Virus record (IMG/VR): IMGVR_UViG_2724679539_000006
Location: 1 to 31,897 of that record
Direction: 5' to 3' (one strand)
DNA: 31,897 bases
Origin: a virus
Lineage: Duplodnaviria; Heunggongvirae; Uroviricota; Caudoviricetes
Below are positions 3,276-16,444 of this stretch, piece by piece. Each line of letters begins with the position of its first letter. Position 1 is the first letter of the stretch. The notes beneath the pieces were generated by a model. The model had not been told where the DNA came from and did no database searches. It worked only from the letters and a program-made list of their open reading frames with translations. The translations under genes and the position numbers were made by a program.

Positions 3276-3880
3276 TAAGCAGCCGCTCCTTCTAATTCGT
3301 CTCGTCTGATGTTGTAAACGTCCTGCGCTTTGTGCTGCTCCGGTGTGCCTTCGAGCATCTTCCACGCTTTGGCGAACGCCTGTTTAAGCTCTTCTACGGT
3401 GTTTTTCTGCATTGCTGCGTCAGTGAATGCTTTTAGAACCTGTTCAGGTGTAGGTGATGGTTTTGATTGCTTTGCTGCTGCGTTCTGCTGATGTTTATGC
3501 TCGTCTGTATCTGCATCTTTCGCATCATCAATGCCGAACAAACCATTGAGGCAATACTTGCGTGCATAAGAGCTTGTAGCTCCTGTAACTTGTGCAGAAT
3601 CCATTCCTTTCTTGCTTTCTTCCTCTCGTGCAAGAGCGGTTGCCGTATGACTGTTTTCGCCATCGGTAATAGTTGCCGTGGCTTTCACGTAATACCGATC
3701 ACCAATCAACACAACTTCATCGCTGATTGATAAAAACAGGCCATTCAGTAACGGCTTAACGCCTTCAAGAATGTCTTCGCAGCTTCTGTATTTATATTTA
3801 CCGAATGAGTTGTACTGATTCTTTGGCGCGTTCAGATTCTCCTGAATAGCTGCCAGTCTTGCGTAAAATTCTTTGCTCAT
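3275..3880 (-). CDS. erf: Erf single-strand annealing recombinase
   Basis: MSKEFYARLAAIQENLNAPKNQYNSFGKYKYRSCEDILEG... matches P22 Erf as recalled; ATG start at 3880 (track start is an upstream TTG). Confidence 0.8.
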   Translation of the reverse strand: MSKEFYARLAAIQENLNAPKNQYNSFGKYKYRSCEDILEGVKPLLNGLFLSISDEVVLIGDRYYVKATATITDGENSHTATALAREEESKKGMDSAQVTGATSSYARKYCLNGLFGIDDAKDADTDEHKHQQNAAAKQSKPSPTPEQVLKAFTDAAMQKNTVEELKQAFAKAWKMLEGTPEQHKAQDVYNIRRDELEGAAA

Positions 3881-3969
3881 ATGTTTGTTCTCAGAATGGA
3901 CATGGCCCAAGGAAATAACGCTGATTTAATACTTCAGTCTTTGCCGCATTTAAAAATACGCGAACACCT

Positions 3970-13784: not shown

Positions 13785-14427
13785 TGGCAGCAAATACCGA
13801 AATATTTGGGTAGCTGGCGATCTGCACGGATGCTACACGAACCTGATGAACAAACTGGATACGATTGGATTCGACAACAAAAAAGACCTGCTTATCTCGG
13901 TGGGCGATTTGGTTGATCGTGGTGCAGAGAACGTTGAATGCCTGGAATTAATCACATTCCCCTGGTTCAGAGCTGTACGTGGAAACCATGAGCAAATGAT
14001 GATTGATGGCTTATCAGAGCGTGGAAACGTCAATCACTGGCTGCTTAATGGCGGTAGTTGGTTCTTTAATCTCGATTACGACAAAGAAATTCTGGCTAAA
14101 GCTCTTTCCCATAAAGCAGATGAACTTCCGTTAATCATCGAACTGGTGAGTAAAGGTAAAAAATATGTCATCTGCCACGCCGATTATCCTTGTGACGAAT
14201 ACGAGTTTGGAAAGCCAGTTGATCATCAGCAGGTAATCTGGAACCGAGAACGAATCAGCAACTCACAAGACGGGATCGTGAAAGAAATCAAAGGAGCGGA
14301 CACGTTCATCTTTGGTCATACGCCAGCAGTGAAACCACTCAAGTTTGCCAACCAGATGTATATCGATACCGGCGCAGTGTTCTGCGGAAACCTCACATTG
14401 ATTCAGGTACAGGGAGAAGGCGCATGA
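13762..14427 (+). CDS. ninI: NinI Ser/Thr protein phosphatase
   Basis: 221 aa from ATG 13762; GDLHGC...GDLVDRG...GNHE metallophosphatase motifs; matches the lambda phosphatase. Confidence 0.9.
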
Positions 14428-15047
14428 GACTCGAAAACGTAGCTAAATTTCATTCGCCAAAAAGCCCGATGATGAGCGACTCACCACGGGCTACGGCTTC
14501 TGACTCTCTTTCCGGTACTGATGTGATGGCTGCTATGGGGATGGCGCAATCACAAGCCGGATTCGGAATGGCTGCATTCTGTGGTAAGCACGAACTCAGC
14601 CAGAACGACAAACAAAAGGCTATCAACTATCTGATGCAATTTGCACACAAGGTATCGGGGAAATACCGTGGTGTGGCAAAGCTCGAAGGAAATACTAAGG
14701 CAAAGGTACTGCAAGTGCTCGCAACATTCGCTTATGCGGATTATTGCCGTAGCGCTGCGACGCCGGGAGCAAGATGCAGAGATTGCCACGGTACAGGCCG
14801 TGCGGTTGATATAGCAAAAACAGAGCAGTGGGGGAGAGTTGTCGAGAAAGAGTGCGGAAGATGCAAAGGCGTCGGCTATTCAAGGATGCCAGCAAGCGCC
14901 GCATATCGCGCTGTAACGATGCTAATCCCAAACCTTACCCAACCCACCTGGTCACGCACTGTTAAGCCGCTGTATGACGCTCTGGTGGTGCAATGCCACA
15001 AGGAAGAGTCAATCGCAGACAACATTTTGAATGCGGTCACACGTTAG
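14424..15047 (+). CDS. Q: Q late-gene antiterminator
   Basis: 207 aa, [47 protein letters not shown]... matches lambda Q. Confidence 0.9.
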
Positions 15048-15089
15048 CAGCATAATTGCCACGGATGGCAACATGTTAACGGCATGATA

Positions 15090-15125
15090 TTGACTTTTTG
15101 AATAAAGTTGGGTAAATTTGACCCA
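15090..15125 (+). promoter_or_regulatory. PR' late promoter with qut site
   Basis: -35 TTGACT (15090-15095), 17-bp spacer, -10 TAAATT (15113-15118); sequence context as in lambda PR'/qut. Confidence 0.7.
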
Positions 15126-15318
15126 ACGATGGGTTAATTCGCTCGTTGTGGTAGTGAGATAAAAAGAGGCGGCGCTTACTACCGATTCCGCCTAGTTGGT
15201 CACTTCGACGCATCGTCTGGAACTCCAACCATCGCAGGCTGAGAGGTCTGTAAAATGCAATCCCGAAACAGTTCGCAGGTAATAGTTAGAGCCTGCATAA
15301 CGGTTTCGGGATTTTTTA
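15125..15318 (+). ncRNA. 6S RNA (short PR' transcript ending at tR')
   Basis: predicted start about 7 nt after the -10 to the end of the tR' U-run gives about 194 nt, the lambda 6S RNA length. Confidence 0.5.
15262..15318 (+). terminator. tR' intrinsic terminator
   Basis: long hairpin CCCGAAAC...GGTTTCGGG followed by ATTTTTTAT, as in lambda. Confidence 0.75.
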
Positions 15319-16120
15319 TATCTGTGTAACAGGTAAGAGCATTCTCCCTTATGGGGCTTGGCTTAAATGCACCGAGTGCTCTTATCGTTGTGGCAGCACA
15401 ACGATAGTTTTCGTCAGAGTTGGCGACTTTGCGGTTTTTTAGAAACTGACCACAAAGATAAATGCAAACGATGATGTTGTTCTGATGGCGGCGTAATAGC
15501 CTGTAAGTCAGCAAGGTCTTCCGACTCCTTGTAAACAAATTCGGCGCACTGGCCCGGTGTGATTAATAATGGGCACACAACAGGTAAGAGCATTAAAGAA
15601 CTGGCAAAGAGCTTAACGGTCTGCGAAAGCATTTCTTAGTGGCACAACTGGCCGGTACAACTGAGTGCTCTTTCCGGTGTGGTGAATGCGCAGGCTGATG
15701 CGCGCAGGAGAGCTTCGGAAGAACAAGGTGCCTGTATACAAGCCGGAGATCAGCGCCGGCCACCACAGCCAAATCCACCCAGAGCAAAACCGTTGTTCAT
15801 CCTTACCATTCCCTCAGTATTTTGGGCTACAACCCTCAGCCCATTTTTTAAAGCGTACTTCCACCAAGAACCAGACCTAACCAACTCATTGCTGACACTC
15901 TGTGGATACGGTTGTCTAGTGCGCTTTAAAAAAGAAAACCCAGCATCAATGGCTGGGCTTCGTGATATGAGCGGCATGTATTGTTGGCGCAATCCACGCC
16001 TGATTTGCTCATGAATGCGGTCACGAACAAGCCCGTTACAAATAAACCGTAACCCGGATTTGTTCAAGCGACCATATCCATAATTCCTAATTTGAACAGA
16101 TCCCCTTCTGGGGGTAAGAC

Positions 16121-16444
16121 ATGAAGATGCCAGAAAAACATGACCTGTTAGCCGCCATTCTCGCGGCAAAGGAACAAGGCATCGGGGCAATCCTTGCGTT
16201 TGCAATGGCGTACCTTCGCGGCAGATACAATGGCGGTGCGTTTACAAAAACAGTAATCGACGCAACGATGTGCGCCATTATCGCCTGGTTCATTCGTGAC
16301 CTTCTCGACTTCGCCGGACTAAGTAGCAATCTCGCTTATATAACGAGCGTGTTCATCGGCTACATCGGTACTGACTCGATTGGTTCGCTTATCAAACGCT
16401 TCGCTGCTAAAAAAGCCGGAGTAGAAGATGGTGGAAATCAATAA
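16121..16444 (+). CDS. S: S holin/antiholin (dual-start S107/S105)
   Basis: [54 protein letters not shown]... matches lambda S; ATGAAGATG dual-start motif. Confidence 0.9.

Follow-up and report, generated by a model that had tools for sequence, protein, structure and literature searches.

The late leader of a lambda-like phage, the 802-bp interval between the terminator tR' and gene S at 15319–16120 of the 31,897-nt stretch of viral DNA analysed here (the window), carries a conserved structured RNA, which we call module A, that is related to transfer-messenger RNA (tmRNA) and has no tRNA-like domain (TLD). The leader represents one copy of a widespread, apparently undescribed tmRNA variant that lacks this domain and is set within a modular array of tRNA-like RNAs. 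That module A is a selected, tmRNA-derived RNA gene is well supported by its conserved reading frame, its covarying helices and its spread among phages. We further lean, if only slightly, towards the view that the leader is oversized because it carries a horizontally mobile cassette of non-coding RNA, in which module A would serve as a tag template in a trans-translation-type reaction.

The interval lies between the tR' hairpin and U-run, which end at 15318 downstream of Q (14424–15047), and the start of S at 16121. Its 802 bp compare with 405 bp in lambda (44781–45185), in agreement with the first-pass annotation of this DNA, which had put the leader at about twice the lambda length. Q, pR', the 6S region and tR' are almost identical to those of lambda, marking the window as a lambda-like phage. 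None of the five longest open reading frames of the interval on either strand (64–151 amino acids) has a Pfam match or a credible PHROG match, as expected from the earlier statement that it contains no convincing reading frames, and the accompanying suggestion of RNA cargo in this Q-dependent slot is supported, the interval being non-coding and holding such cargo.

Module A and its tag reading frame

Module A spans 176 nt and comprises the following parts, numbered as in the window:

15404–15579, plus strand: module A as a whole, a structured and conserved RNA that lacks a tRNA-like domain and is related to the coding piece of two-piece tmRNA, recognised by sub-threshold Rfam matches, covariation and coding constraint
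15406–15415, plus strand: the motif AGUUUUCGUC at the 5' edge, present in every enteric copy and resembling the D-loop analogue AGUUUCGAC of the permuted tmRNAs L159, L018 and L151 (L numbers are our handles for loci and contigs)
15427–15457, plus strand: 5' hairpin CUUUGCGG / CCACAAAG, which precedes the resume codon and has the conserved loop UUUUUUAGAAACUGA; 90% of cells paired
15464–15499, plus strand: tag reading frame, with the GCA resume codon at 15464–15466, ten codons for ANDDVVLMAA at 15464–15493 and TAA TAG at 15494–15499
15482–15511, plus strand: helix-5-like hairpin CUGA...UCAG, whose loop contains the stop codons; 99.6% paired, one pair being GC in 34 and AU in 25 copies
15512–15544, plus strand: pseudoknot PK-I, stem 15512–15516 with 15527–15531, and CCGA 15521–15524 with UCGG 15541–15544
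15545–15574, plus strand: pseudoknot PK-II, CGCAC 15545–15549 with GUGUG 15557–15561, inside GCCC 15552–15555 / GGGC 15571–15574

The tag stretch reads AUAAAU GCA AAC GAU GAU GUU GUU CUG AUG GCG GCG UAA UAG, and its GCA resume codon has neither a start codon nor a ribosome-binding site, as is typical of the internal tag frame of a tmRNA; the ssrA tag of Escherichia coli is ANDENYALAA. An AUG that overlaps the resume codon opens a frame that is not conserved. A first tally of related sequences gave 26 tag variants, all of ten codons except one of 12 codons, which belongs to a called permuted tmRNA on an environmental contig. Among 41 unique enteric sequences there were 16 distinct tag peptides, and every enteric copy consists of ten codons and then a stop, with codon 11 being a stop in 41/41 unique sequences (TAA 38, TAG 2, TGA 1). 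Entropy at the three codon positions was 5.4, 4.4 and 9.5, the third being about double the others, and pairwise differences divided into 1116 synonymous to 2911 non-synonymous in the GCA frame, compared with 49:3825 and 245:3491 in the other two frames, a synonymous excess of roughly 5- to 30-fold. The GCA frame evolves under coding constraint, and it is the only frame to do so. Our search pattern fixed parts of codons 1–3 and 7–10 while leaving the stop, the length and the middle codons free; six relatives found by BLAST alone, without this bias, have the same layout, for example ANDSEMRMVA in Erwinia phage Faunus and ANDDLMMVAA in P1. Separately, five metagenome-assembled genomes (L128–L132; Oscillospiraceae, Ruminococcaceae and a gammaproteobacterium) match AAATGCAAACGA-N12-YTGRYNGYNGC and may hold ordinary tmRNA genes with 11-codon tags.

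Covariation was assessed on 59 distinct copies of module A, aligned to a model of 32 pairs that had been read from the sequences. Altogether 91.2% of cells were paired, against 38–46% when the partners were slid, and changes on both sides occurred in 18 of the 32 pairs (168 cells), with 0/500 shuffles reaching any of these measures; the pseudoknots are included in this result. Both pseudoknot stems swap among GC, AU and CG: pairs of PK-I occur as UA 29 / CG 26, GC 36 / AU 15 and AU 42 / GC 10, and those of PK-II, whose loop bears the conserved AUUAAUAA, as CG 47 / GC 8 / UA 3 and CG 43 / GC 7 / UA 5. The short stem of the helix-5-like hairpin (15482–15485 with 15508–15511) corresponds to helix 5 of tmRNA, and the 5' hairpin shows a few compensatory changes, such as a UUAUGUGG/CCAAUAA variant. 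Compared with the tmRNA layout of one pseudoknot upstream (PK1) and three downstream (PK2–4), module A has two downstream pseudoknots backed by covariation, and upstream only the hairpin is supported. Minimum free energy folding of module A gave z = −0.27, a method expected to miss pseudoknots.

These features point to tmRNA, as do the covariance models. A permissive Rfam scan by E-value of 14900–16300 returned tmRNA families as its two best matches, both over 15442–15545 (tmRNA_permuted, 26.3 bits, E = 0.0046; beta_tmRNA, E = 0.0062), and the best-scoring relatives, the module A copies of phage IME11 and contig L135, reached 33.1 and 39 bits. At gathering score, the Rfam search that the first-pass annotation had proposed found no family in the window, and ARAGORN likewise gave no match there. 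By contrast, in 11 of the 17 environmental viral contigs that carry the resume and tag pattern of module A, ARAGORN calls a permuted, that is two-piece, tmRNA, with tags such as ANDERFLMAA, ANDNAFLMAA and ANDSRFLMVA. In these contigs the layout is complete: first comes the T-arm, next the 3' acceptor strand, which ends in ACCA, the excised loop and the 5' acceptor strand GGGxxxx, which has G3:U70, and then AAAU-AGUUUCGAC-AGGG. Every enteric copy opens with the motif AGUUUUCG(U/G/A), in the window GAU-AGUUUUCGUC-AG. In tmRNA, the D-loop analogue GGNUUCGAC stands beside the 5' acceptor strand; in module A, AGUUUUCGUC is present in all copies without an adjoining acceptor strand. The two motifs AGUUUUCGUC and AGUUUCGAC resemble each other and may be homologous; a MAFFT alignment did not bring them together.

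The nearest match to module A is the coding piece of the permuted two-piece tmRNAs of environmental viral contigs, and it resembles such a piece whose tRNA-like partner was lost or never present. Because it lacks the defining tRNA-like domain, we class it not as a tmRNA, whether one-piece (RF00023) or two-piece, but as a variant related to tmRNA. Two ways of restoring such a domain from the flanking hairpins H1 and H2 (described below) were considered and rejected. A standard topology, with the 3' strand of H1 and the 5' strand of H2 as acceptor, is ruled out by flanking hairpins that differ in sequence in Det7, cp21 and Felix O1 and by copies of the phage C1 type, which start a few nucleotides before the AGUUUUCG motif; a permuted topology, with H1 as an acceptor hairpin with excised loop, fails on the lack of a T-arm before H1 and of a CCA after its 5' arm. 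Elsewhere in two of the carrier phages, IME11 (L003, 2426–2490) and C1 (L002, about 2870–2915), the conserved segment GCGGAGCUGGA(C/U)...CCAG can be aligned with the P2/'GGAC' portion of Rfam's permuted-tmRNA model; it lacks the T-arm and acceptor and has the appearance of a remnant tmRNA acceptor piece.

Carriers and genomic settings of module A

By megablast, the phages HK620 and HK633 were colinear with the leader over 15423–16120 at 95% identity, and about 270 phage records shared only about 15423–15594 at 80–97%. The first-pass annotation had asked whether the region would align colinearly with a well-studied leader; it does so with HK620 over this span, where the HK620 leader has itself been characterised only as far as a predicted terminator. 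A more sensitive blastn search found relatives of module A in at least 757 phage records from about ten lineages. The loci examined were from HK620 (Lederbergvirus), C1 (Deseoctovirus), IME11, KKP 3715 and Shigella phage B2 (Schitoviridae), Felix O1 (Ounavirinae, Felixounavirus), Det7, cp21, selz and IME250 (Ackermannviridae), Erwinia phage Faunus (Chaseviridae), Cronobacter phage SG01 (Drexlerviridae), P1 and relatives (Punavirus), and Klebsiella phage-plasmids of ~110 kb.

Many of these settings are rich in tRNA genes, with module A lying in or beside tRNA clusters in Felix O1, Det7, IME11 and P1. It is within the cluster, on the tRNA strand, in Felix O1, upstream of the tRNA genes on the same strand in Det7, and in the tRNA region of IME11. 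The P1 copy (L231, NC_005856), with the tag ANDDLMMVAA, lies at about 905–1090 of L231, corresponding to about 68,893–69,080 of the record, within the C1-controlled ban operon leader, flanked by the annotated 'dicF-like region' and trnA/trnT; it is unannotated there, and one H-type hairpin follows it while another follows trnT. Bacterial genomes carry the element as well: of 5,426 complete E. coli genomes, 137 carry module A, in each case in the chromosome, and the full 802 bp is present at ≥99% identity in 84 E. coli genomes, mostly of enterohaemorrhagic E. coli (EHEC) O26:H11. Parts of the leader match 516 places in the complete E. coli genomes, 264 of them on plasmids; module A was never found on an E. 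coli plasmid, and another leader segment is common on these plasmids, which are presumably phage-plasmids.

None of the records examined annotates an RNA feature at module A, most listing nothing and a few a 'hypothetical protein' coding sequence, and a full-text literature search that included the tag peptides found no description of the element. Some copies have promoter matches of their own: the C1 copy is preceded by a strong match to a sigma-70 promoter, ending 7–10 nt before the AGUUUUCG motif, and a similar arrangement, read by eye only, is seen in L135, L182 and L051. In the unannotated genome of the Klebsiella phage cp21 (L006, Ackermannviridae), a separate Rfam match lies ~1.5 kb downstream of module A, at 3668–3881, to the family STnc100 with 50.7 bits (gathering score 47).

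Flanking hairpins, module B and the mosaic leader

Around module A, the leader and its boundaries contain the following elements:

15259–15318, plus strand: lambda-type tR' (6S RNA terminator hairpin and U-run), inverted repeat 15259–15273 with 15299–15313, near-identical to lambda; left boundary of the leader
15323–15395, plus strand: hairpin H1, its 5' arm with the first ACAGGTAAGAGCATT and its 3' arm GAGTGCTCTTATCGTTGTG; −26.9 kcal/mol, z = −3.0
15382–15407, plus strand: perfect 11-bp mini-hairpin UAUCGUUGUGG-CAG-CACAACGAUA; −14.2 kcal/mol, z = −6.9
15576–15681, plus strand: hairpin H2, CACAAC-AGGU-AAGAGCA (with the second ACAGGTAAGAGCATT), a 68-nt loop and UGCUCUU-UCC-GGUGUG
15677–15771, plus strand: module B, a cloverleaf tRNA-like RNA; acceptor UGUGGUG 15677–15683 with CACCACA 15761–15767, T-like arm 15742–15760, G and CCA 15768–15771
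15824–15849, plus strand: second intrinsic terminator, GGGCU...AGCCC and six T, whose equivalent the HK620 record annotates as the late terminator tQ
15850–16014, strand not assigned: HK620-type segment holding an inverted repeat and, on the minus strand, a terminator-like hairpin; L096 has a related segment with compensatory changes
16015–16120, plus strand: S-proximal leader, lambda-homologous, from CGGTCACGAACAA... to the S ribosome-binding site

The cassette therein runs in the order H1, mini-hairpin, module A, H2, module B, second terminator. The first-pass annotation had described the interval as an internally duplicated segment, on the strength of a motif seen at two sites. The motif ACAGGTAAGAGCATT does occur exactly twice in the whole window, at 15329–15343 and 15580–15594, the first site having been placed one base too far at 15330; with ≤2 mismatches allowed, 0.08 chance matches would be expected, and 1/100 shuffles gave ≥2. 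The exact repeat is 16 nt long, AACAGGTAAGAGCATT. The further stretch that was said to follow each copy is also present, as the repeat ACYGAGTGCTCTT..GTGTGG at 15371 and 15660, with 83% identity between the copies. Being the inverted complement of the motif, this repeat forms a hairpin with it at each site; the two hairpins, H1 and H2, are homologous and bracket module A. The 'duplication' is accordingly two copies of a conserved spacer hairpin and not a duplicated leader segment: a repeated segment does enlarge the leader relative to lambda, as claimed, yet it consists of two spacer hairpins on either side of an inserted RNA gene.

Variants of H2 are compensatory, AAGGGUA/UGCCCUU in cp21 and AAUGGCA/UGCCAUU in L208, and the H1 loop CTCCCTTATGGGGCTTGGCTTAAATGCA is common to the equivalent hairpin of Felix O1. 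The mini-hairpin, which adjoins module A, is an 'empty' GTTGTGG/CCACAAC closing helix and also fits a terminator pattern. In L026 and L182, the conserved module UAACAACGGGCAUGUYGCCUUAGUAAAUCCCUCAAGGGUGC stands 3' of module A; it recurs in lambdoid late leaders between module A and the next H hairpin and has no Rfam family match.

Module B folds with a D-like arm, a long anticodon-like arm (21-nt interior) and a T-like arm stacked on the acceptor. Its T-loop AGAUCAGCG is non-canonical, and it is negative with ARAGORN and Rfam and falls outside canonical tRNAs. The earlier statement that the interval holds no tRNA-like sequence is therefore right as far as ARAGORN and Rfam at gathering score go and wrong in substance, given the cloverleaf at 15677–15771 and the tmRNA-like reading frame within 15404–15579. 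Relatives of module B in L204, L208, L143 and L182 have canonical D arms, UUCGAUU T-loops and a large insert of ~75 nt (75–125 nt among relatives), module B and its relatives being 95–153 nt long, and the 3' part of the L204 copy gives a sub-threshold Rfam tmRNA match (20.2 bits, local E = 3e-6). The acceptor stem shows compensatory changes, UGUGCUG/CAGCACA in lambda and UGCGGUG/CACCGCA in L183, a contig of Ackermannviridae.

Of 87 distinct contexts, 47 have a tRNA-like closure after module A, compared with 23 of 135 control stretches, and in Ackermannviridae module B lies upstream of module A behind an apparent separate promoter, read by eye. Module B is a plausible candidate partner for module A. 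As an alanine acceptor it is not supported: it has U3–A70 and a CCA that is not conserved, some copies of module A have no module B next to them, and in Ackermannviridae it is upstream. A search with RNAduplex for a docking site between A and B returned meaningless duplexes from the long sequences. A tRNA-like partner with G3:U70 is found only in Felix O1-type phages. There, at 2194–2272 of the Felix O1 locus (L004), an unannotated tRNA-like gene lies right after the module A copy and hairpin, with the acceptor CGGGGCG/CGCCUCG, G3:U70, A73 and CCA; it scores 31.7 bits with the Rfam tRNA model (gathering score 29), has no ARAGORN call and is common to seven Felix-type contexts.

Alignment to lambda, as the first-pass annotation had advised, gave identity from Q to 15343 and again over the last ~105 bp before S, and the two leaders are not colinear in between. 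The statement that only the second motif copy continues like lambda holds for about 25 nt (AGTGCTCTTTCCGKTGTGSTGAAT) and fails beyond. HK620-type sequence runs from about 15423. The arrangement H1-A-H2 recurs in L204, where a canonical module B and after it lambda sequence come next. Sequence of three types thus makes up the leader, of lambda type to 15343, of L204/L026 type over H1 and module A, and of HK620 type from H2 onward, a pattern that suggests recombination inside the conserved hairpin and the module A 3' end.

The lambda leader shares with the window the slot, pR', 6S, tR', the 5' arm of H and the S-proximal ~105 bp. It has one H hairpin and a decayed B-type helix (GUUGUGCUG...CAGCACAAC), and differs in having no module A, second hairpin, intact module B or second terminator. 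Its sequence suggests that the lambda late leader can be recast as the decayed remnant of a tRNA-like array. The HK620 leader, in the same slot, is distinguished from the window by the module A tag ANEEMYLAVA and a different H1.

Beyond the second terminator, an inverted repeat with 16-nt arms (15844–15859 with 15918–15933, 94% complementary, enclosing 58 nt) is also present in HK620. On the minus strand, the terminator-like hairpin at 15925–15961, GAAGCCCAGC-CAUUGAU-GCUGGGUUUUC followed by a U-run (−14.4 kcal/mol, z = −3.4), is kept with the compensatory changes CCCGCC...GGCGGG in the prophage contig L096, which suggests an antisense transcript that would start near the S start and end at this hairpin. 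An exact 13-nt direct repeat, TGAATGCGGTCAC, occurs at 15028–15040, at the 3' end of Q, and at 16012–16024, where lambda homology resumes, and may be a recombination junction.

Readings of the cassette and comparison with known systems

On the reading that we favour, the steps would be as follows. Module A of the window lies behind tR' without a promoter match of its own, and is therefore expected only under Q antitermination, so that the cassette would be made only when Q antiterminates late transcription. The H hairpins may act as processing or insulating elements that free modules A and B, and ribosomes would then add a short ssrA-like tag from the module A template in a trans-translation-type reaction, for which the acceptor function might be supplied by another RNA, either a B-type tRNA-like module or the host Ala-tmRNA–SmpB machinery. 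We would put forward only tentatively the broader proposal that enterobacterial phages have split tmRNA, with a free-standing module A template that pairs with a separate B-type acceptor RNA or captures ribosomes entered by host Ala-tmRNA–SmpB, such that infection would rewrite the degradation tag on stalled host or phage proteins.

Decoding of module A as a tag template is the weakest step of this explanation, and several observations weigh against it. We know of no mechanism that decodes a tmRNA frame without a linked, charged tRNA-like domain. All Rfam scores (26–39 bits) are below the gathering threshold of 47, ARAGORN called a tmRNA in 0/116 enteric-type loci and none in the window, and a scan of the window for T-arms gave no canonical T-arm, only a chance site inside a coding sequence. 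Upstream of the AGUUUUCG motif, the preceding 7 nt are not conserved and offer no G3:U70, and the predicted transcription start of C1-type copies leaves no room for a 5' acceptor strand. Module B has U3–A70 and not G3:U70, its T-loop is degenerate in the window and its CCA is not conserved; closure after module A is seen only in the 47/87 contexts given above and is of the B type in only about 25. Finally, the window copy has no promoter match of its own behind tR', and part of the tag invariance was imposed by the search pattern.

The main rival, which we consider unlikely, is that module A is a decoy or inhibitor, which mimics the message and the SmpB- or S1-binding parts of tmRNA, titrates trans-translation factors or a tmRNA-targeting host nuclease, and is never decoded. 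No acceptor or T-arm is present, as this would predict, and the parts retained include the AGUUUUCG motif and the stretch that immediately precedes the resume codon; regions of both kinds contact SmpB in tmRNA. A counter-defence role has been proposed for phage tRNAs, and the placement of module A in phage tRNA clusters fits such a role. There is also a precedent in the TLD-only tmRNA of mycobacteriophage DS6A, which inhibits tmRNA, perhaps by SmpB titration (Mao et al. 2009, as cited in PMC4131195 and PMC11915505). However, a decoy needs no intact frame, yet the ten codons, the codon-11 stop in three spellings and the 5- to 30-fold synonymous excess have all been kept.

Less probable still is a role in processing or as a source of small RNAs, in which the hairpins and tRNA-like modules would be punctuation for RNase P, RNase III or RNase E, the loops or module A would be base-pairing small RNAs or sponges, and the likeness to tmRNA would be ancestral baggage. 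Prophage late regions are known sources of small RNAs. The loops of the H hairpins and the insert of module B are hypervariable within conserved stems, CA-rich CACAAC motifs recur at the module junctions, and in P1 an H-type hairpin is also present after trnT. The codon-level constraint and the invariant context of the resume codon are left unexplained by this account, and no target was identified.

We find it very improbable that the cassette is an inert relic, what is left of a tRNA/tmRNA cluster in decay, carried along by recombination at conserved hairpins and now without function. Decay is visible in places, in the H hairpin and decayed module B that are all lambda retains, in the degenerate module B T-loop of the window and in the apparent tmRNA P2-region relics of IME11 and C1, and the leader combines segments of lambda, L204 and HK620 type. 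Against this, module A is 90–97% identical across unrelated phage families, compensatory changes maintain its four helices and two pseudoknots, the frame is intact in every copy examined, and some copies have their own promoter matches. Least probable of all is a cis-acting leader structure that tunes Q read-through, mRNA stability or S translation, and hence lysis timing: the position between tR' and S and the presence of a second terminator (15824–15849) with several strong hairpins would suit the regulatory structure that the first-pass annotation had also offered, but module A lies far from lysis genes in the Felix O1 tRNA cluster, the P1 ban leader and the tRNA regions of N4-like phages, and stands alone with a promoter match in C1, so that its occurrence in tRNA clusters, lytic phages and P1 argues against a cis role at the lysis genes.

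If the tag frame is decoded, module A would be the first tmRNA-type template without its own tRNA-like domain and a new phage route to ribosome rescue and proteolysis; as a decoy, it would form the counterpart to DS6A's TLD-only inhibitor. In either case, a conserved RNA gene has been missed by current annotation in the model phages P1, Felix O1 and HK620 and in EHEC O26 prophages. Phages of the Ackermannviridae and Felixounavirus and N4-like phages, among which there are carriers of module A, are considered for therapy, and P1, HK620 and inducible O26 prophages are genetically tractable for testing. In the tmRNA surveys consulted, detection was by ARAGORN and Rfam-based tools, and phage tmRNAs are listed only for mycobacteriophages and Bacillus phage G; that these tools, at gathering score in the case of Rfam, find nothing at module A would explain why the class went unseen.

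Among known phage RNAs of the tRNA type, the closest parallels in setting are the tRNAs of late leaders and lytic-phage clusters. The Shiga toxin phage 933W carries the tRNA genes ileZ-argN-argO in its Q-dependent late leader, and, like the cassette, these leader tRNAs and the clusters of lytic phages are translation-related RNA cargo that is co-transcribed with late or tRNA genes. Unlike those tRNAs, neither module A nor module B is a canonical tRNA, and both are negative with ARAGORN and at Rfam gathering score. The species 1 and 2 RNAs of T4 are stable tRNA-like RNAs in a phage tRNA cluster; they can be likened by description to module B and its relatives, with their acceptor stem, D arm, T arm, large insert and location in tRNA regions, a likeness that we offer as a lead only.

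The closest known relative of module A is the coding piece of two-piece tmRNA (RF04321, RF01849, RF01850). Both have the resume context UAAAU-GCA-AAC-GA and a 10-residue AND...L(M/A)(A/V)A tag, with stops in a helix-5-like hairpin loop, downstream pseudoknots and similar AGUUU(U)CGNC motifs upstream, and both are phage-borne, a two-piece tmRNA being known from a marine methylophage (PMC9004378). Unlike two-piece tmRNA, module A lacks both the 5' acceptor strand bearing G3:U70 and a neighbouring acceptor piece (T-arm, 3' strand, CCA), is ARAGORN-negative and below Rfam gathering score, has a shorter distance from the AGUUUUCG motif to the tag, and is flanked by spacer hairpins. The converse case is DS6A, another phage-borne half tmRNA, which raises the idea of phages manipulating trans-translation with partial tmRNAs. 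We found no report in the literature of a tmRNA form without a tRNA-like domain, and the two halves are complementary: DS6A keeps the tRNA-like domain without a tag frame, whereas module A keeps the tag frame and pseudoknots without the tRNA-like domain.

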